Virus record (IMG/VR): IMGVR_UViG_3300016484_000913
Location: 1 to 37,619 of that record
Length of the DNA stretch: 37,619 bases
Source of the DNA: a virus
Lineage: Duplodnaviria > Caudoviricetes
Direction: 5' to 3' (one strand)
Every line of letters starts with the position of its first letter. The stretch's first letter is position 1. Under the pieces are notes generated by a model, which worked only from the letters and a program-made list of their open reading frames with translations, did not search any database and was not told the origin of the DNA. Positions 17,182 through 35,856 of the stretch are shown here, in pieces. The position numbers were made by a program, and so were the translations under genes.

Positions 17182-17666
17182 TTATTCGCCGGGGCGTTTG
17201 AAGAAGAAGCTTCGTATCAGTGCGATGTCATCGAGGGCCATTGCCACGAGCAGCGCGCCGTCCATGCGTTTGGACCGGGGCGCGTCGCTGTCGAATAGCG
17301 CGAGGAGCGCGGCGGCGGAGCACAGCGGGTGACTGCGCAGCCGCGTCAGAGTTTTTTTACGTCGAGCTCGTCGCTGGCGCCCGCCAGTTCGGTCAGCTTG
17401 GTGCTGATGGTGGTCGGCAGCGCCGGCTTCTTCGCGAACACTGCGAGCACGTCAGCACGCGCCGGCCAGACGATGTTGTCCAGCACGTAGTTACGCATCG
17501 CGCTCACACGGTCTTTTTCGCGCAAAATCTCGCTCTGGAACGCATCCCAGGACTCCGCGCTTGGCGTACGCAGCACCCACGTCGACCCGGAAACGCTCAC
17601 CGCGTGCAGGTCGACTCCGGGGTACTTCGATTTCAGTTCACGAATCGTCTCTTCCGTCAGTTCCAT
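17182..17666 (-). CDS. Tail assembly chaperone, extended (gpGT-like) -1 frameshift product
   Basis: GTA AAA AAA CTC TGA; the -1 frame reads KKTLTRLRSHPL...FFFKRPGE* and stops 3 nt before the TMP ATG. Confidence 0.8.
17346..17666 (-). CDS. Tail assembly chaperone (gpG-like)
   Basis: 106 aa between tube and TMP, ending at a slippery A7. Confidence 0.85.
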   Translation of the reverse strand: MELTEETIRELKSKYPGVDLHAVSVSGSTWVLRTPSAESWDAFQSEILREKDRVSAMRNYVLDNIVWPARADVLAVFAKKPALPTTISTKLTELAGASDELDVKKL

Positions 17667-25481: not shown

Positions 25482-25490
25482 TGGTAGGCT
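25482..25490 (+). promoter_or_regulatory. Extended -10 (TG-G-TAGGCT) 6 nt before ATG 25497; leaderless promoter candidate
   Basis: Sequence match; no SD; same arrangement at the paralogue. Confidence 0.5.
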
Positions 25491-25496
25491 GCGCGA

Positions 25497-25796
25497 ATGG
25501 CAAACATCTGGAAGCTCAGCGACGGGACGGTCATCACGCAGGACGGCGGCGTCACGTCGGTGACCGGCGACAGCAAAGCCGCGGTAGACCTGCAATCCGA
25601 TCTCGAACTGCAGAAGATGGGCGACCGCATCACGTCTCCGAGCGCGTTCGTGCGTCAGTTGCTTAACCCCGCGGATGCGTGGTCGGTGCACTGCTGGGTG
25701 GCCGAGAAGGCTCGGGAAAACGGCTTGGAGATCACCGAGGAGCCCGACATTGAGAAGCCGGAGCAGTTCAAGACGGTGAAGGGTCGAATCTACTGA
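25497..25796 (+). CDS. Antisense partner (putative immunity protein) of the MuF C-terminal domain
   Basis: 99 aa; paralogue of 27983..28273; 7-nt stop overlap with MuF. Confidence 0.85.
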   Translation: MANIWKLSDGTVITQDGGVTSVTGDSKAAVDLQSDLELQKMGDRITSPSAFVRQLLNPADAWSVHCWVAEKARENGLEITEEPDIEKPEQFKTVKGRIY

Positions 25797-25821
25797 TTCG
25801 CGAGCTGGCCGAGTACGAAGT
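25788..25821. repeat. 34-nt repeat copy 1 spanning the convergent stop codons (copy 2 at 28265-28298)
   Basis: ATCTACTGATTCGCGAG(C/T)TGGCCGAGT(A/G)CGAAGT, 2 mismatches. Confidence 0.9.
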
Positions 25822-27589
25822 GAAACGTGTCCTTGTCCTGCGCGACCACGCGGCCCATTTTCGTCGGATTGTTGAGATGCTCGGTGGTGGTGGCGAGCAA
25901 TTCGGTTGCCTCGCGACCACCAGGGCCTTTGCCCTCGTAGACCTTGCCGGCGAACGGAGTGTGTAGCTTGTCCGGCTGCGCCAACTCGTCGTGGCCGTAC
26001 GCTTCATGATCCTTGAGCGTGTTGAGCTTCACTACCGGCTCGCCCTTGGTTCGGGCCTGCAGGTAGGCGACCGACTTGGCCAGGCGCTCTGGGTTGCGCT
26101 CCTCGATGGCGTGCCCCCACTCGTGCATCACGGCGCTGGTGATCTCGTGTCGATTGGCGGTGCCGCCCGCTCCTAGATTGATGTGCGACCCCTGCTGAAA
26201 CGCTCGATCTTCGTGGTCGGCCGACCAGCGATACCCGGTCGGCTGCTTCAGATCGGCATGCGAGAGAGCGCCGAACGCGGCGGCGGCATCGGCGCGCGCG
26301 CCGCGGAGCTCCACGTGTGGCAGCCTCGCGCCTGCTGCGACTGTAACGTCGTGGTCGAGCCTGATGTCGCCTGCCCGGTCGTTCCCGAGCGCGCGGTGAT
26401 GAGCCGCGATAGCGATCGTGGCCTCGAACTCGGCCACCTTCTTGCGCTCCATGTCGGCCAACATGGGGTTTTTCTTCGGAGCGTTGGCCGATGCCTTGGC
26501 GGCGTCGATCAGCGAGCCTGCGTCCGCGTGCCCGTCCTTGAGCAGTTTCGCGTGCATCGGCGACGTGCGGATGTCGTAGACGTCCACGCCGGCAGCCTTG
26601 AGCGCGTCCACCGACTCGTGCAGCTGCTCCGGGGTGAGCGCGCGGCCCTGGTGTTCCATCGCGCGACCCCACGCAACCGTGCTCGCAGCCTCTCCGTACT
26701 GCGCCTTGAGCTCGGCCTCGTGATGGGCCGGGTCATGCAGCGGTGAGGCGTACGAGCCGCTACCGGAGCGCCCAGACGTCCACTGCCCGCCCTTGGACGA
26801 GCCGGCTGGGACGCGGGGCTGTCCGCTCGCAAACTTGGCCTCGAGCGCGAGCTCGGTGTCGGCCGACTTACGGCGGCGCTTCTTCGCCGCCCGCGCACGC
26901 ATCGACTCCTGCTTGCGCGTGTACTCGCGCGCGAGGTGGTGGTCGTACTTGGCGAGATCGGGGTGCCACATCGCGCCCGCTCGGAGCGGCGGGGCAAGAC
27001 CCCAGTCACCGGCGATGTCAGGCCGCGGCGCTTCGCGTGTCGGACCGCCAGCCCGCTTGACCATGCGGTCGCTGAGAGCGCGTACGGCGGATCGGCAGCG
27101 ATGGTGGGAGGGTGGCCAGTGAGTCAGCCACCATGGATCGTCATGCCGGCGGATCGTGCCTGTGAGAGACCGGCAAACCCGCGTCGTACTCTGATCGAGC
27201 ACGGCGTCGTACCGAAGATACTTCAACACCTTGGTCACTTCTGGCTTGTTCATCTGCCAGTAGCGGCCCGTGTTGTAGGCCATCTGGTTCGCGTTGATGA
27301 ACGCCGTCGTCAGGTTCGTCGCGTTCTTCTCAGTGAACCGCTTCCCGAGCTTCTCTTTGATCGCCTTTCGCCACGCGTCTATCGCCGTGCCGTTGTCGAT
27401 GGCTTTGGCGATCTCGTCGAATACGGCCTGGACGACCTCAAGCTGCTGCGTGCCAGCGAGCACGAATGCCTGCCGGCGCTCGGCAACCGTCAGTTGCTCC
27501 CACTCGTCGCGGGTGACCGGGACGCGACCGCGGAACCAGTCGGAGGCTTCCCGGAAGCGCGCGGGGTCTGCGGGGGCTTTCTTGGGCAC
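25790..27589 (-). CDS. MuF/gpF (SPP1 gp7-like) head morphogenesis protein with C-terminal HExxH zincin-like effector domain
   Basis: AYNTGRY, YDAVLD..TT.VC..L.G, DDPWW..HWPP.H.RCRS MuF motifs; then QPRVPAGSSKGGQW; C-terminal HEWGH...GKVY...TE. Confidence 0.92.
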   Translation of the reverse strand: MPKKAPADPARFREASDWFRGRVPVTRDEWEQLTVAERRQAFVLAGTQQLEVVQAVFDEIAKAIDNGTAIDAWRKAIKEKLGKRFTEKNATNLTTAFINANQMAYNTGRYWQMNKPEVTKVLKYLRYDAVLDQSTTRVCRSLTGTIRRHDDPWWLTHWPPSHHRCRSAVRALSDRMVKRAGGPTREAPRPDIAGDWGLAPPLRAGAMWHPDLAKYDHHLAREYTRKQESMRARAAKKRRRKSADTELALEAKFASGQPRVPAGSSKGGQWTSGRSGSGSYASPLHDPAHHEAELKAQYGEAASTVAWGRAMEHQGRALTPEQLHESVDALKAAGVDVYDIRTSPMHAKLLKDGHADAGSLIDAAKASANAPKKNPMLADMERKKVAEFEATIAIAAHHRALGNDRAGDIRLDHDVTVAAGARLPHVELRGARADAAAAFGALSHADLKQPTGYRWSADHEDRAFQQGSHINLGAGGTANRHEITSAVMHEWGHAIEERNPERLAKSVAYLQARTKGEPVVKLNTLKDHEAYGHDELAQPDKLHTPFAGKVYEGKGPGGREATELLATTTEHLNNPTKMGRVVAQDKDTFHFVLGQLANQ

Positions 27590-27614
27590 GTCCTAAAACA
27601 CGTCAGGCGCACGG

Positions 27615-27857
27615 TTACTTTGACGCATACTCGGCAGATGTTTGAGCGCTCTCACAGGCAATGGCCTGGTTTGCGGTCATCACCACCTCGCGGATCTTAC
27701 GAACCGCGCAGGTTTGGTCTGCCGATGGCGCCGTGCACGCCAAAATCACCTCCGCAAAGGCCTTCCCGGCATCCCGGATGCGAATATAGCGTTCCTGTTG
27801 GCCAGGCTGCGGCGCGTGGTAGACGAACCAGTTGTCCAGGTCTGTTTGAGTGATCAT
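27615..27857 (-). CDS. Acb2/Tad1-like hairpin protein (putative anti-defence nucleotide-signal sponge)
   Basis: ATG 27857 with GAGGAAG SD; WF.YHAP..GQ.ERY..IR..GK.FA..I....PS.D...A.RK.RE.VM.AN.AIA pattern. Confidence 0.7.
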   Translation of the reverse strand: MITQTDLDNWFVYHAPQPGQQERYIRIRDAGKAFAEVILACTAPSADQTCAVRKIREVVMTANQAIACESAQTSAEYASK

Positions 27858-27969
27858 TTCTTCCTCGAACGCCACACGAACCACCATGACAGGAGAATCC
27901 ACGACGTCTATTTCCTCTCTCATCCCTGCGATCAGCGAGAGCGTGCTCGCTTGGGCACGTAGGCAGGCG

Positions 27970-27975
27970 TAGGAT
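27970..27975 (+). promoter_or_regulatory. -10-like TAGGAT 7 nt before ATG 27983; leaderless promoter candidate
   Basis: Mirrors TAGGCT before the paralogous gene. Confidence 0.45.
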
Positions 27976-27982
27976 GCGGTCC

Positions 27983-28273
27983 ATGAAATGGACGATCTCA
28001 GATGGTACGACCGTGCAACTTGGCGGGAACGTCAGCGGAAAGGGCAAGGTCGCCGTCGCGCTGCGAGCCGACATCGCGGCAACGGCTCGTGGGGAGGCGG
28101 TGTTGGTAAACGTCTACCCTGAGCCCGCCGGATCCGAGGAGCTCAACCTGTCCAACCCGCTTCACGTACACCTATGGGTGGCCGATGCGGCGCGCTTGGC
28201 CGGCGAGACTGTGACCGATGCGCCCGAGATCGAGATCCCGGAAAGCGAATCGGACCCAGACGAGATCTACTGA
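27983..28273 (+). CDS. Antisense partner (putative immunity protein) of the portal C-terminal domain
   Basis: Paralogue of 25497..25796 (W..SDGT, K.AV.L..D, VH.WVA..AR..G, P.IE.PE, IY*); 7-nt stop overlap; alternative start 27974. Confidence 0.85.
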   Translation: MKWTISDGTTVQLGGNVSGKGKVAVALRADIAATARGEAVLVNVYPEPAGSEELNLSNPLHVHLWVADAARLAGETVTDAPEIEIPESESDPDEIY

Positions 28274-28298
28274 TTCGCGAGTTGGCCGAGTGCGAAGT
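28265..28298. repeat. 34-nt repeat copy 2 spanning the convergent stop codons
   Basis: Matches 25788-25821. Confidence 0.9.
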
Positions 28299-31200
28299 TC
28301 ACGGTGTCGGGGTCACGTTTGTTGATTCGCGAGATGATCCTGTTGTCGTGCATGAACTGCACGCCCATGGACGTCACCTCGGTCGCATACCGGCCCTTGT
28401 GCTCGGCGTAGCCCTTTTCGCCTTTACTGCCAGAGTAGACCTTGCCCACGTACGGGTGCCAGAACTCGTCCTCCTGCGTGACCTCGTGCTTCTTGTAGCG
28501 CGCATCGCCGGTCAGTTTGGACATCTTCTTCGGCAGTGCGCCTTTGGCACGGGCCTCGATGAACTCGACCGACTTGGCCGTGAGGCGCGGGTTCGCGGCC
28601 TCTAGCACATGCGCCCACTCGTGGATCGCGGTGCCCTTGTGATGAGATAGGGATGCGTCCTTTAGCCCGACGCCTAGATTGACCGTGCGTTTGGCTGGGC
28701 TGGCAGCGCCACGCAGTCGCTCGTTCGCGTGCCAGGCATAGTCGGTCGGATGCACCAACGACTGATGGCTCATCGCGCCGTAAAACGCGCTCGCCTCGTC
28801 GACGATTCCTTGGGCTTGCTTCGCTGAGATCTTCGAGCCTGTCGTGTGCGTCAGCGTTCCGAGCGTTGCCACGCTCGACCGTTGACCGTCCAGCGCCTGG
28901 TGGTGCGCGGCCAGCTTCGAACTGATGGCGATGCGGTCTGCGATGCCCGGGCGCGTGGCGCGGAGTTTGTCTTCGAGCTCGCCAGCGGTCTTTGCTTTGA
29001 CGCTGCCGATCAGCGCTTTGTGCTCTCGATGGTCGAATACGCCGACGCCAGATGCTTTGAGCATGTCGACGCGGGCATGGTACTCCCGCATGGGCATATC
29101 GCGGCCGCGCGCTGCCATGGCGTGCCCCCACGCTACGGTGCTAGCGGCCTCGCCATACTGCGCCTTGAGCCGCTGCGCGTGATGCGCTGGATCATGCTCG
29201 GGTTTGGGTGGCGCGGGCCTTGATCTCTTGGCCGCTGCGGGCTTTTTTTTTGACGCCGCCTGACGCGTCGAAGCCTTCTTCTTCGCCGCCTTACGCGGCT
29301 TGGCAGCGGCTGGCTTGGCGGACGAATCGCCGCCAGCCTTGCGCTTGGCGGCTTTGCGCTTGGCGGCGGGCTTCTTCGCGACCTTGGCCTTTGCCGCAGG
29401 CTTCTTGGCGGCCTTCTTCTTCGGGGCGCCCTTGGGCGCTGCCGCCTTCTTGCGGGCGGCCTTCGGCTTTGCCCCTGCCGCAGCTCCACCGCCGCCACCA
29501 GCGGCTTTCTTGGCGCCGCCTGGTGCCTTCTTGGCCTTGGTCGCCGAGCCTGCCGAGCCGTTCTTGGGCATGAATTGGCCGCCCTTGCTCGACCCGGCAG
29601 GGTAGTGCTGGACGGCGGCCGTGAGGTCGGGAAAGAGTTCGGTCTGCCGCGCGTCGACAGACGGCTCGGCGTCTTCGGGCAGGTCTTCGAGCACGGAGTG
29701 GCGGCCTGACAGATTCGCCAACACGAGCCCGGCGTGCACGATGTCAGCCAGCTGATCGGGGTCTGCCTCGGCCTGGAATGCCTTCAGCACGGCGTGCCGG
29801 ATCGATTCGTAGTCCTCGGCGCCGTCGATGGCGGCCGTGATCCGCGCAACCATGCCCGTCAGGTTGTCAGCCGCGCGCGAGACGCAGCGCTCGCTCAGGT
29901 CGTCGACGTAGAGCTGGCCGTGCACGAATCCCGGAGCTTCGTCCGGGTCGTCACCGCTGGCGAGGTATACGCCCGCGGCAGAAGCTTCCGACGTCGGGTC
30001 ATCCTCGACCGCGTCTGCGCCGTCGGCTGCAGCGTCATCTTCAGCCGGTTCCTCGTCCTCGACAGGTGCACCGCCGCCGTCGGGATCCTCAGGGTCCGGC
30101 TCCTCCTCGTGCTCCTCCAGTACGACGCCGTATTCCTCCTCGATGGTTTCAAGCGGCAGCTTGTAGCCAGCCGTCTTGAGCCCCGTCAGCGCGTCGGCCA
30201 ACGTCTTGAGTCCCGCCGCCTTTTCGGCGAAATCCTCCGGCGGCTCGGTATGCCAGAACGGGTACGCCGCGAAGTCGCGCGTGCCGAAATTGAACTCCGA
30301 CCACCAGGAAAGGGACTGGAGCTTGATCGGCTTTGCGATCATCCAGGCCGCATTGCGGACGCGACGGTTCTCTTTCTTGTCGTGAACTTGGGCCGCTGCG
30401 CGCGAGCCCTCCTGCACGTTCGTCGAGAGGTTCTGCCCGAGGATCGCGATTGACGCGGCCTCGTCCGCCATGCGGATCTGCGCGCCGTAGATCTGGTCGA
30501 CGTTCGCGTTGGTCTCGATCAGCTTCAGGTCGAAGCCGATCGGCAACGCGATCACGGCGTCTTTGCCGGCCTCGTAGATGTAGTTCGCGACGGCCTCACG
30601 CTCGTCGGCCGTGCTCTCCGGGCTGGCAGTGGCGACGAGTTTCGCGGACTTCTCGGAGTGAATCCCCGCGTCTTGCTGCGCGTATTGCTTGAGCAGCCAC
30701 CACGCGCCGAGCCCGCGCCACAGGCCGTTTGCCCACGGCCGCCACTCGCCACCCTTCGTGACGATCACCCAAGTGCCGTCACCGGCTGCGATAGGAGTCC
30801 AGCGCTCAGTCCCAGGCTCGCGCACGTGCCATGAGTGGTGGCGCTGGTCTCCGGTATGCGGGTGGCCGTCTTTGACGCGCCACGAGAAATGCTGCGGGTG
30901 CCACCACTTGAGCGCCGGAACAACGCGACCACTATCGGTCTCGCGCCATGCCTCGTGCTTCGCGAATCCAACGCCGGTGACGAGCGTCCAGGCGATCAGG
31001 TTGCGCAGCTCGTCGTCGTCGTAGCCGACCTCCCAATCGGCTTCGAGCTCGGCGCTCTTAGGCGCTGAGCCAACCGACGTGCGGAGCGAACGTTCGAACG
31101 TCAGGTCACAGCCAAGCACGTCGTCAGCGAGCTGACCGAGCAGCGCGCCGAATCGGTCATCGGCCATGATGCAGTCGCACAGATTGGCGAGCAGCGCCAT

Positions 31201-31344
31201 GTCGCCAGCATCCGCCCGGCGGAGCACCTGACGCAGCAGCGCAGGCGTCCACAGCACTCCCTGACGCGGCGACGGCGCGCTGATAGGCACCGACGCTTCA
31301 CGCGGCACAGCGCGCAGAGCAGCTGATTTCGCGGACTTGGACAT
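28267..31344 (-). CDS. Portal protein (Mu gp29/DUF935-like) fused to Lys/Ala-rich linker and C-terminal HExxH zincin-like effector domain
   Basis: L..AD.GD, ILGQNLST...GSRAAAQVH portal motifs; follows terL; ~470-aa extension with PAGSSKGGQF, KKAA/KKPAA repeats, HEWAH...PYVGKVY...TEVTSMG. Confidence 0.92.
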   Translation of the reverse strand: MSKSAKSAALRAVPREASVPISAPSPRQGVLWTPALLRQVLRRADAGDMALLANLCDCIMADDRFGALLGQLADDVLGCDLTFERSLRTSVGSAPKSAELEADWEVGYDDDELRNLIAWTLVTGVGFAKHEAWRETDSGRVVPALKWWHPQHFSWRVKDGHPHTGDQRHHSWHVREPGTERWTPIAAGDGTWVIVTKGGEWRPWANGLWRGLGAWWLLKQYAQQDAGIHSEKSAKLVATASPESTADEREAVANYIYEAGKDAVIALPIGFDLKLIETNANVDQIYGAQIRMADEAASIAILGQNLSTNVQEGSRAAAQVHDKKENRRVRNAAWMIAKPIKLQSLSWWSEFNFGTRDFAAYPFWHTEPPEDFAEKAAGLKTLADALTGLKTAGYKLPLETIEEEYGVVLEEHEEEPDPEDPDGGGAPVEDEEPAEDDAAADGADAVEDDPTSEASAAGVYLASGDDPDEAPGFVHGQLYVDDLSERCVSRAADNLTGMVARITAAIDGAEDYESIRHAVLKAFQAEADPDQLADIVHAGLVLANLSGRHSVLEDLPEDAEPSVDARQTELFPDLTAAVQHYPAGSSKGGQFMPKNGSAGSATKAKKAPGGAKKAAGGGGGAAAGAKPKAARKKAAAPKGAPKKKAAKKPAAKAKVAKKPAAKRKAAKRKAGGDSSAKPAAAKPRKAAKKKASTRQAASKKKPAAAKRSRPAPPKPEHDPAHHAQRLKAQYGEAASTVAWGHAMAARGRDMPMREYHARVDMLKASGVGVFDHREHKALIGSVKAKTAGELEDKLRATRPGIADRIAISSKLAAHHQALDGQRSSVATLGTLTHTTGSKISAKQAQGIVDEASAFYGAMSHQSLVHPTDYAWHANERLRGAASPAKRTVNLGVGLKDASLSHHKGTAIHEWAHVLEAANPRLTAKSVEFIEARAKGALPKKMSKLTGDARYKKHEVTQEDEFWHPYVGKVYSGSKGEKGYAEHKGRYATEVTSMGVQFMHDNRIISRINKRDPDTVNFALGQLANQ

Positions 31345-31407: not shown

Positions 31408-31548
31408 ATGCGATTCGTGGTGTTGGCCACGCTGGACGGCGTCCGGCGTAGGTGTGTCTATGAGACGTCTGGGGAAGCGCTGGCCGCCAAGTCAGCCCTC
31501 CAAGGGGCCGGGTGGTTCGCGGTTATGGCACCGGAGGTGGCTCGATGA
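31408..31548 (+). CDS. Small moron protein (46 aa)
   Basis: Not in ORF track: MRFVVLATLDGVRRRCVYETSGEALAAKSALQGAGWFAVMAPEVAR*; SD-like GGAAGG/AGGT; ATGA overlap with the next gene. Confidence 0.6.
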   Translation: MRFVVLATLDGVRRRCVYETSGEALAAKSALQGAGWFAVMAPEVAR

Positions 31549-31961
31549 ACGCGCCGATCATCGACTGGCACGCTGGCACTGTTGGGGCCAGCCCATTCCC
31601 ACGCGTCGACGAGATCGAGACGCGGGTCAGAGCCGTCGCTCGGGACAACCGGGAGATGGCCGAGCTCTGCAACCTCCTAGAGGCCGAGCTCAGGGCGCAG
31701 GGCGGGCTCCGCGTCCAGCTGGCCAATGTCGAGCGCGAGCGCGACGCGGCGCTGGAGGTCGCGACGCCGCTGTTGGCGCTCTGCCAGCAGCAGCACGAAG
31801 AGATCGAGCAGCTGCGCGCTCAGCTGGCCGCGCTCGTGGAGCAGCGCGACAGGCTGGCGGCTGCTGCTACCGAGCTGTGTGAGGATGTCGAGCGGCGCGA
31901 TCCGGATGGTCGGACGCGCAAGTTGGCCTGCAACGCGAGAAGGGCGGTGCTGGGGATCTAA
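31545..31961 (+). CDS. Coiled-coil moron protein between terL and portal
   Basis: ATG 31545 with GGAGGT SD; heptad-rich; convergent overlap with the terL stop. Confidence 0.75.
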   Translation: MNAPIIDWHAGTVGASPFPRVDEIETRVRAVARDNREMAELCNLLEAELRAQGGLRVQLANVERERDAALEVATPLLALCQQQHEEIEQLRAQLAALVEQRDRLAAAATELCEDVERRDPDGRTRKLACNARRAVLGI

Positions 31962-34277: not shown

Positions 34278-34903
34278 GCCGCGCGCGCCTCCTTCTCCAA
34301 CTGCTCCGCCTGTCGGCAGCACTTCGCCAGCGCCATCGCACGCTCCTCGGCCGCCTTCGCTCTTGGCTGTGCCTTGTGCACCGCCGCGATGACTTCGAGC
34401 CGCTGCGGCGCTGGGATCTGGATTGCATTGGGCTCTGCGCTGGCAGCCGCGACCAACGCGCGGCCCTTGTCGGTCAGGTGGTACAGAGCTCCAACACGGC
34501 CATGCCCGGTGGTGCCGAGCGCCCAGCGGTTGCCCGATTCCCCGAAATACAGGGCCAGCACCGTGGCCGACAACTGCGACCGGCGCTCGACCAGCATCAC
34601 CAACCGGCTGACATGAGCATACCGTTCGAGCACGCGGTCGTCGGGGACGTAGCCGCTGACCTCGTGCGTCTCCGCCGTCGGGCGCGCAGTGATGGCACTG
34701 CGGTGCCCGATGCATACACCGGCCGCGGTGAGCACCGGTTCCATCGGCCAGGTGTACGTGACCGATCCGAACGCCTCCGCGCGCTCCAACATGCCGCCCA
34801 TCGTCGAGCGCTCGAACGCAGTCTGACCGGGGCCGAAGTACCAGAGCAGGTCGGACTCGTCGCGCGGCGAATACTGCGGCACTGGAGCGTGGCTGGCCGT
34901 CAT
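34247..34903 (-). CDS. Hypothetical protein (218 aa), possible late regulator
   Basis: ATGA-coupled to the bEBP stop; position only. Confidence 0.7.
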   Translation of the reverse strand: MTASHAPVPQYSPRDESDLLWYFGPGQTAFERSTMGGMLERAEAFGSVTYTWPMEPVLTAAGVCIGHRSAITARPTAETHEVSGYVPDDRVLERYAHVSRLVMLVERRSQLSATVLALYFGESGNRWALGTTGHGRVGALYHLTDKGRALVAAASAEPNAIQIPAPQRLEVIAAVHKAQPRAKAAEERAMALAKCCRQAEQLEKEARAAWHDAKLQLG

Positions 34904-35856
34904 TCAGCAGCCTCTCGCTGTGAATCCCGGTCCCATCTCTTGAGCATCTCAACCAGCGTGGTGCGATGGAGCCCGAGCATTCGAGCAGCCTTGGCCTTTT
35001 CCCCGCCAGCGATCACCAGCGCACGCCGCACGCAGTCGCGCTCCAGACTGGAGAGCATAGGACGGAGATTCACAGGGAGCGTCACCAACGTCTGAGCACC
35101 ATAAACGTCTTCCTCGGGTAGATCGGAACGGCCGATCTGGCCTTCGGCGCGAGTGATGACGGCGGACTCGATGACGTTTCGGAGTTGGCGGATGTTGCCG
35201 GGCCAGCACCTGCCCCGCAGATCTTCCAGCGCGCGGTCACTGATGCCTGTGACTTTGCGGCCGTGGAGACTGTTGAGTTCTTCGAGAAACTGCCGCGCTA
35301 GGTCATCGATATCCTCGGCGCGAGCTCGCAACGGCGGCACCGTCACTACATACGCGCTGATGCGATGGTACAGGTCGAGGCGGAATCGACCGTCGGCTGC
35401 CAGCGCAGGAAGGTCCCCGTGCGTCGCGCAGATGACCCGGACGTCGATGCGACGAGGCTGGGCGCTCCCTACGCGGGTCACTGTCCTGGATTCCAGAATG
35501 CGCAGTAACTTGGCCTGCTGCGACAGCGGCATGTCGCCGATCTCGTCTAGGAAAATGGTCCCGCCGTGCGCCACCTCAAACGCTCCACATCTTGCGGACG
35601 TGGCCCCCGTGAATGCGCCGCGCTCGTGCCCAAAGAGCTCGCTCTCAAGTAACGGCTCGGGGATGGCAGCACAGCTGACCGGCACGAATGGAAGGTTCGA
35701 GCGGGGACTGGCGGAGTGAATCGCGCGTGCGAGGACATCCTTCCCAGTACCGGTCTCACCTCGCAGCAGCACCGAGCAAGACGTGTCCGCCACGCGGTTG
35801 GCCGCGGTCAAAGCGGACATCATGGCCACGGACCGACTGACGATCCCGAGGGTCAC
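34900..35856 (-). CDS. Sigma54-dependent enhancer-binding protein (AAA+ plus Fis HTH) lacking an N-terminal sensory domain
   Basis: GETGTGKD, ESELFGHERGAFTGA, FLDEIGDM, FRLDLYHRI, WPGNIRQL, AARMLGLHRTTL. Confidence 0.96.
   Translation of the reverse strand: MTLGIVSRSVAMMSALTAANRVADTSCSVLLRGETGTGKDVLARAIHSASPRSNLPFVPVSCAAIPEPLLESELFGHERGAFTGATSARCGAFEVAHGGTIFLDEIGDMPLSQQAKLLRILESRTVTRVGSAQPRRIDVRVICATHGDLPALAADGRFRLDLYHRISAYVVTVPPLRARAEDIDDLARQFLEELNSLHGRKVTGISDRALEDLRGRCWPGNIRQLRNVIESAVITRAEGQIGRSDLPEEDVYGAQTLVTLPVNLRPMLSSLERDCVRRALVIAGGEKAKAARMLGLHRTTLVEMLKRWDRDSQREAAE

Follow-up and report, generated by a model that had tools for sequence, protein, structure and literature searches.

The portal and MuF proteins encoded by a Caudoviricetes virus record (IMGVR_UViG_3300016484_000913; its 37,619 nucleotides are the window analysed here, a 37.6-kb record with an estimated completeness of 77%) end in homologous modules of about 310 residues that are likely zincins, and each gene is met tail to tail by a small, paralogous plus-strand gene. 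We favour, with moderate confidence, the reading that these are head-associated zincin effectors with cognate immunity proteins, the partner gene having left the late operon by inversion and probably being expressed separately. MuF metallopeptidase toxins, small downstream open reading frames (ORFs), portal fusions and immunity genes without a toxin have between them been reported (PMC5576092, PMC3482391, PMC5512222, PMC9503650, PMC12226406, PMC11699363 and PMC10083569, as far as the retrieved text of these papers goes). Portal effector fusions are thus already known, and the zincin domain family lies within the published MuF-toxin catalogue; what has not been described so far is the partner family and its repeated inversion, with a predicted promoter of its own, together with the orphan partners and the paralogous pairs on two head proteins. 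Titles and abstract openings, with subscription papers outside the scope, describe no convergent partners of MuF or portal zincins.

Zincin modules on two head proteins

The C-terminal modules of the portal and MuF proteins (Table 1) are 38% identical over 330 columns (E 6e-46), and share the motifs by which the initial annotation had recognised them as homologous. Its assignment to the zincins also holds, as HExxH, a downstream Glu (the putative third zinc ligand), one further Glu and GKxY are invariant in 101/101 aligned homologues, rows that were chosen partly on motifs (all for HExxH, many through a motif including the downstream Glu). The AlphaFold model of the portal module (pLDDT 94, pTM 0.93) places the downstream Glu at the start of a C-terminal helix. 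Residues 108-309 of the module have their best structural match at Z 7.4 (rmsd 3.5-3.9, about 150 aligned residues), the top matches being the anthrax lethal factor catalytic domain and a Pro-Pro endopeptidase (147-152 residues aligned, 12-14% identity) and the 50 matches listed being overwhelmingly proteins of zinc-metallopeptidase fold. A Z below 8 indicates a common zincin fold, not a common function. Unlike lethal factor and the Pro-Pro endopeptidases, to which it has no sequence match, the module has an extra helical subdomain of about 107 residues (residues 1-107), which is found in the close clade, barely aligns to any structure and gave no usable Atlas match. Foldseek returned no match for the zincin module at E <= 0.001, and a PDB sequence search gave weak matches only. 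Motif and predicted fold together make the domain likely a zincin, with protease activity predicted.

Homologous loci were collected by alignment searches (11 loci and 5 loci) and by a motif scan covering 18/64 parts of the data (at least 122 loci), with full flanks for 80 loci. The zincin profile matched all 146 loci gathered, with 151 matches in total; a single-sequence locus search found no loci, and a genome scan with the zincin alignment no matches. The domain is present in 23 GenBank phage records, and the family in the cultured phages Flavobacterium pippi8-1, Lactococcus 62503 and Planktothrix PaV-LD, the last homologue being annotated 'virion structural protein', a label whose origin could not be traced. 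The homologue in phage 315.3 falls in a gene whose product is catalogued as a MuF toxin, its toxin domain being a zinc metallohydrolase (Table S4, PMC5576092, as retrieved), and in two GenBank MuF cases that were opened a co-directional ORF of about 70 aa follows the zincin domain.

Metallopeptidases make up about one-fifth of MuF toxins (20% of 191), which carry a C-terminal toxin-type domain (Jamet et al. 2017, PMC5576092). The MuF copy of the window conforms to this layout, as far as the retrieved text describes it: it has an N-terminal MuF domain, lies in the head module downstream of the portal gene, and has an ORF of fewer than 150 aa (99 aa) directly at its stop. This ORF is, however, on the opposite strand, a difference from the MuF toxins of Jamet et al. 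that extends to its predicted promoter and to a partner family now defined, whereas the small ORFs of homologues are mostly co-directional; the words 'orientation' and 'opposite' are absent from the main text of that paper. A further difference is the second copy, on a portal protein in which Portal_Mu alone was detected, without an N-terminal MuF domain, and in which the zincin is C-terminal. It resembles a MuF toxin in its working at most, and we do not class it as one.

The portal-borne copy had been put forward as distinctive, which the literature does not support. PBECR, 2H, Nudix and ART domains fused to portal or MuF proteins are predicted to be packaged and injected, and the zincin MPTase is the commonest domain of polyvalent proteins (PMC5512222, PMC9503650); the window proteins are like these fusions in bearing an enzymatic-type domain on a head protein. 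A portal-zincin fusion that has its own dedicated partner is mentioned in the retrieved parts of neither paper. Unlike the polyvalent proteins (Iyer et al. 2017), each window fusion protein has a single effector domain detectable by family scans, while relatives in L003 and L205 have extra modules.

That a two-gene cassette sits on different head proteins is supported by MuF, Portal_Mu and PF06381 carriers. Among 80 upstream stretches scanned, 40 matched MuF (PF04233), one MuF2, three a portal family and one DdrB-ParB, two of the three portal-positive stretches being portal-MuF fusions included in the 40; three had only intein or helix-turn-helix (HTH) matches, and 34 had no Pfam match, many being shortened by the flank end. 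Portals of family PF06381 bear the same zincin module in L003, L204, L205, P0008 and P0009, and in L003 and L205 additional modules lie between portal and zincin, each preceded by a similar linker motif. Because of these portals and their stacked modules, the portal is a recurrent modular carrier in this group.

The PF06381 portals L205 1564-6024 and L003 994-4749 are 1250-1490 aa long, each stacked module standing behind an RxPxGS..GG(Q/R)(W/F) motif. That of L003 includes a second HExxH domain, and the extra modules of L205 resemble ADP-ribosyltransferases by eye, for which Pfam gave no confirmation. MuF proteins in L162 (236-2188), P0161 and P0162 have an AAA_18 kinase-like insert with the zincin module at the end, and intein/HINT insertions occur in the MuF-type carriers L009 (2676-5315), L026, L029 and L079. 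Tandem stand-alone zincin genes, mostly with one partner each and with neither MuF nor portal visible by eye, are found in L186 (1-5234) and L188; their proteins start with a Gly-rich GxSGxxGHxGxxGxxGGS motif, possibly a head-targeting tag. In the window itself the zincin module of the portal is preceded by a Lys/Ala-rich linker of about 115 aa that is histone-H1-like and, from its composition, may bind DNA.

The initial annotation had called the cassette duplicated. Paralogy is borne out but recency is not, since the copies stand no nearer to one another than to homologues from other phages: in this comparison the two zincins share 40% identity with each other and 35-38% with zincins of other phages, while the portal partner shares 52% (L162) and 48% identity with partners from elsewhere and 34% with the MuF partner. 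Recent tandem duplication or gene conversion is unsupported by the tree and by a count of just 10/21 identical codons where the N-terminal part is best conserved. To judge from the sequences, the copies diverged long ago as paralogues or were acquired separately. Two or more zincin matches occur in 7/45 records with a match, some of them fragments or repeats within a single ORF, and four tandem zincin genes are found in one record. Three further convergent records of the close clade that were searched (G001, G018 and G022; 9-58% complete) have one copy each, and portal and MuF copies within one phage were seen only in the window, on thin sampling.

A small partner and its orientation

Convergent genes of about 97-99 aa had been said to meet both fusion genes as paralogues, and partners A (99 aa) and B (96 aa) are indeed 37% identical (E 2e-15). 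The GC content by codon position of these plus-strand genes is gene-like, which with 190 homologous clusters rules out antisense shadow ORFs; the longest ORF of partner B begins at 27974. The clusters, at 50% identity, were obtained with a profile from 11 partners. Of the 149 new clusters listed, 141 are of at most 135 aa, and 127/141 of these end in Y, F or H, a count biased upward by the terminal Tyr contained in the profile. The predicted partner model (pLDDT 92.5) has an unstructured tail and no clear PDB match (best Z 3.3), which does not establish a new fold, and no usable Atlas match. The window partners have no Pfam or NCBIfam match and weak PHROG matches only, and 136 partner homologues gave just three scattered single-member Pfam/NCBIfam matches; the locus defines a partner family with neither a Pfam match nor a clear PDB match. 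No partner-zincin fusion is present among 149 partner matches. One protein, P0053, has a partner domain behind a Cys-rich small domain matching phrog_33375, and is possibly a double immunity protein.

Closed, C-terminal zincin matches with at least 450 nt downstream (96/151) reduce to 66 distinct zincins, of which 45 have an adjacent partner homologue scoring at least 7 bits with a leave-one-out partner profile, a threshold that was picked after the scores had been seen and that 1/60 second-best frames reached. Searched from the partner side, a zincin is adjacent in 13/13 viral loci (10 distinct; 11 same-strand, 2 convergent). Both counts favour the dedicated small partner originally proposed. 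Genome matches to the partner numbered 18, with five true partners, two adjoining a zincin and three orphans (L165, L168, L170) in bacterial metagenome-assembled genomes (MAGs), of unstated completeness, that have no zincin match. The small gene was thus found independent of the zincin, which had been named as evidence against the proposal, in these three orphans, but is linked to it throughout the viral loci. Orphan immunity genes are known in polymorphic toxin systems. Orphan L168 lies beside an integrase and tRNA-Phe, and orphan L170 has a leaderless-type -10 box.

The small protein might, alternatively, be a substrate, an adaptor or a separate exclusion factor that accompanies the zincin and does not inhibit it. 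Its fold matches no known inhibitor and it persists alone in the three MAGs, as such a role would allow, but its size, position and repetition with tandem copies (with the zincin in 3/4 copies of array L186) are traits of immunity genes, and partner and zincin divergence correlate (rho 0.37, n 20), though shared ancestry alone could produce this. We regard this alternative as very unlikely. A cognate inhibitor has precedent, in that small protein inhibitors are experimentally proven for other MuF toxins (PMC12226406, PMC11699363). The pairs Apk2/IapK and Bxa/Bsi (PMC12226406, PMC10083569, PMC11699363) likewise combine a head-module toxin with a small, largely cognate-specific inhibitor, inhibition being predicted in our case; their toxins, however, are enzymes of other kinds, (p)ppApp synthetases and an ADP-ribosyltransferase, whose immunity genes lie downstream of or next to them, and the retrieved text characterises no zincin member and no immunity protein of one.

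Convergent immunity had been considered distinctive among MuF toxins, and a check was proposed of whether homologues always occur as convergent pairs. The first view is not supported and constant convergence is rejected: 37 of the 45 assigned pairs are same-strand and 8, the window's two included, are convergent, with 21 of the 66 zincins unassigned. Four orientation changes are needed on the zincin tree, at least two being forced by well-supported branches of what is a quick tree, and the approximately unbiased (AU) test rejects the view that convergence arose only once (p 0.0012), two proteins without context having been added to its test group once the tree had been seen. Convergence is a minority state, repeatedly derived. 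The window copies group with L003, L148 and L162 as a convergent clade (support 95).

At both junctions the genes overlap by CTACTGA, read as Tyr-stop on the plus strand and Gln-stop on the minus strand. This overlap was noted correctly in the initial annotation, as was a conserved 34-nt junction (32/34 identical), but the latter is largely LGQLANQ-stop coding: among these eight identical residues 7/8 codons are the same between the copies and 6/8 and 5/8 against other phages, which is nearly as high. The idea that the junction preserves an RNA or DNA element was rejected, as the two copies fold differently and no terminator-like site is present there. A scan for the junction pattern found seven loci, three of them chance matches; the four that encode a zincin (one being L003 again, two having an identical zincin end) all have a convergent partner.

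A -10 box placed a few nucleotides before a start codon is a mark of leaderless transcripts, and both window partners have such a box (Table 1). The pattern was first spotted in the window itself. Across loci, a TAnnnT hexamer 5-8 nt before the start is present in 5/11 convergent partners, 1/40 translationally coupled, 1/6 spaced same-strand and 1/3 orphan partners, against a background of 29/1930 random ATG/GTG codons (1.5%). With the window excluded, the difference between convergent (3/9) and coupled (1/40) partners gives p 0.016. Loci found later have an extended -10 at 6-7 nt in 2/2 cases, one of them counted from the more upstream of its two candidate starts, and their addition brings the convergent count to 7/13.

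Proposed mechanism and alternatives

On this evidence we propose that both zincins, with an intact HExxH-plus-Glu motif, likely act as head-packaged effector proteases. The portal ring has 12 copies, with the C-terminus toward the capsid interior, and fusion would put the domain inside the head, in about 12 copies on the portal ring and few on MuF. The module might be freed at or near the GGQ linker and travel with the DNA into the next cell, where it would cleave a host or rival-phage protein. The convergent small genes likely encode cognate inhibitors transcribed from their own leaderless promoters and not from the late operon, the partner binding and blocking the zincin with its unstructured tail and terminal aromatic residue plausibly in the active-site cleft. 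An inverted partner could be made while the late operon is off, its promoter not driving the downstream protease and capsid genes, and the carrier cell would thereby be protected from its own effector and from that of incoming kin. As there is no terminator at the junction, inversion could also add antisense transcription across the toxin gene. The two diverged copies may represent two specificities, each requiring its own partner, and the two paralogous pairs within one phage are a natural test of cognate against non-cognate pairing. From the repeated inversion and the separate promoter one would predict a need for immunity at times when the late operon is silent; this would distinguish a defence against incoming virions from self-protection while particles assemble.

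Several observations weigh against this proposal. Of the 66 zincins 21 lack a partner at threshold, and PaV-LD has two zincin genes and one partner. The MuF copy retains the zinc motif but deviates at the nearly invariant SMG after the Glu and at the Tyr before GKxY, and so may be weaker or of different specificity. A scan of the region with the sigma-70 consensus found no full promoter; 6/11 convergent partners lack a leaderless box and the co-directional partners L004 and L152 have one, so inversion and an own promoter are not strictly coupled, and a promoter without inversion is possible. No integrase was matched among 40 window ORFs scanned in this incomplete record, and a temperate lifestyle is unsupported for the window phage. 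Exit of a folded 310-aa module from the portal requires cleavage and unfolding, and packaging and injection of MuF toxins, like the function of head effectors, are stated to be open in the retrieved text of PMC10083569.

Injection being unproven for any MuF toxin (PMC10083569), the pair could instead act in or from the producing cell, through lysogen fitness, addiction or release at lysis, with head fusion but no injection. A predicted promoter of the partner's own would suit constant neutralisation, the mechanical demands of portal exit would not arise, and the MuF toxin Bxa serves the lysogen (PMC11699363, retrieved text). On the other hand late-operon genes should be silent in a lysogen, and throughout the family the zincin module is consistently attached to head proteins; its movement between MuF and two portal families suggests selection for the capsid location. 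Action in the producing cell therefore seems to us unlikely.

It is quite unlikely, in our view, that the role of the zincin as a protease is self-processing or head maturation, in which it would trim the portal and MuF extensions and be kept inactive by the small protein until assembly. Autoproteolysis has been proposed for the metallopeptidases of phage polyvalent proteins (PMC5512222, as retrieved), and the related L003 and L205 portals stack several modules before the zincin. Yet the window phage already encodes a Clp-type prohead protease, no other effector domain was detected in the window for the zincin to release, orphan partners occur in genomes without a zincin match, and a late assembly factor needs no independent promoter.

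The effector-immunity reading that we favour may be carried further, into a version that we hold to be doubtful: the portal ring would be a 12-copy exchangeable effector rack for a virion-delivered protease, its modules swapped at the GGQ linker; the antidote gene would have been flipped repeatedly and so have become leaderless and always on, its immunity excluding kin virions; and the antidote alone would have been captured by bacteria or mobile islands against the injected protease.

Genome setting

Coordinates are collected in Table 1. The head and tail operon runs on the minus strand and encodes terminase, portal, MuF, Clp-type protease, capsid, Gp36, DUF2586 (a sheath-like product), tape measure and baseplate J. 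Polyangiaceae MAGs contain two of the three orphans, a hint only as to the host.

Table 1. Positions in the window of the fusion proteins, their partners and associated elements
Feature	Position	Strand	Basis or remark
Portal fusion protein, 1025 aa	28267..31344	-	Portal_Mu, acidic linker, GGQ motif, Lys/Ala-rich linker, C-terminal zincin module
Portal_Mu domain PF06074, aa 55-407	30124..31182	-	E 1.8e-40
PAGSSKGGQF linker motif, portal, ahead of effector module	29572..29601	-	Sequence
Lys/Ala-rich low-complexity linker, portal, about aa 600-714	29203..29547	-	Sequence
Effector module B (portal zincin): helical subdomain residues 1-107, zincin fold 108-309	28270..29196	-	Predicted structure, fold matches
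HEWAH zinc motif, portal, H908-H912	28609..28623	-	Alignment
Putative third zinc ligand E989, portal	28378-28380	-	Alignment
MuF fusion protein, 599 aa	25790..27589	-	PF04233 and TIGR01641 above cut-off
MuF domain PF04233, aa 56-169	27083..27424	-	E 6.9e-14
PAGSSKGGQW linker motif, MuF	26780..26809	-	Sequence
Effector module A (MuF zincin)	25793..26737	-	Alignment
HEWGH zinc motif, MuF, H489-H493	26111..26125	-	Alignment
Putative third zinc ligand E563, MuF	25901-25903	-	Alignment
Partner A, 99 aa, convergent with MuF, ends in Tyr	25497..25796	+	Likely immunity protein
Partner B, 96 aa, convergent with portal, ends in Tyr	27983..28273	+	Likely immunity protein
Junction A, 7-nt stop overlap 25790-25796	25788..25821		Sequence comparison
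Junction B, 7-nt stop overlap 28267-28273	28265..28298		Sequence comparison
TGnTAGGCT extended -10-like element, 6 nt before partner A ATG	25482..25490	+	Predicted leaderless promoter
TAGGAT -10-like hexamer, 7 nt before partner B ATG	27970..27975	+	Predicted leaderless promoter
Acb2/Tad1-family gene, between both cassettes	27615..27923	-	PF24729, 44.9 bits, cut-off 27

Proteins of the Acb2/Tad1 family, a cyclic-nucleotide sponge family, have an anti-defence role, and the member in the window sits within the head module, in the interval between portal and MuF; no Acb2 homologue was found in 201 other loci. Upstream of the terminase genes the phage carries a sigma-54 activator (34900-35856, minus strand) with AAA+ and Fis HTH domains, in which no receiver domain was detected. 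A third plus-strand ORF (31512-31961), with no family match above noise, has gene-like codon GC and lies between terminase and portal, converging on the terminase gene. Finally, a DUF6848 / LIC_10177-like gene (17346-17666, minus strand) is inserted between the tail genes and the tape measure gene.

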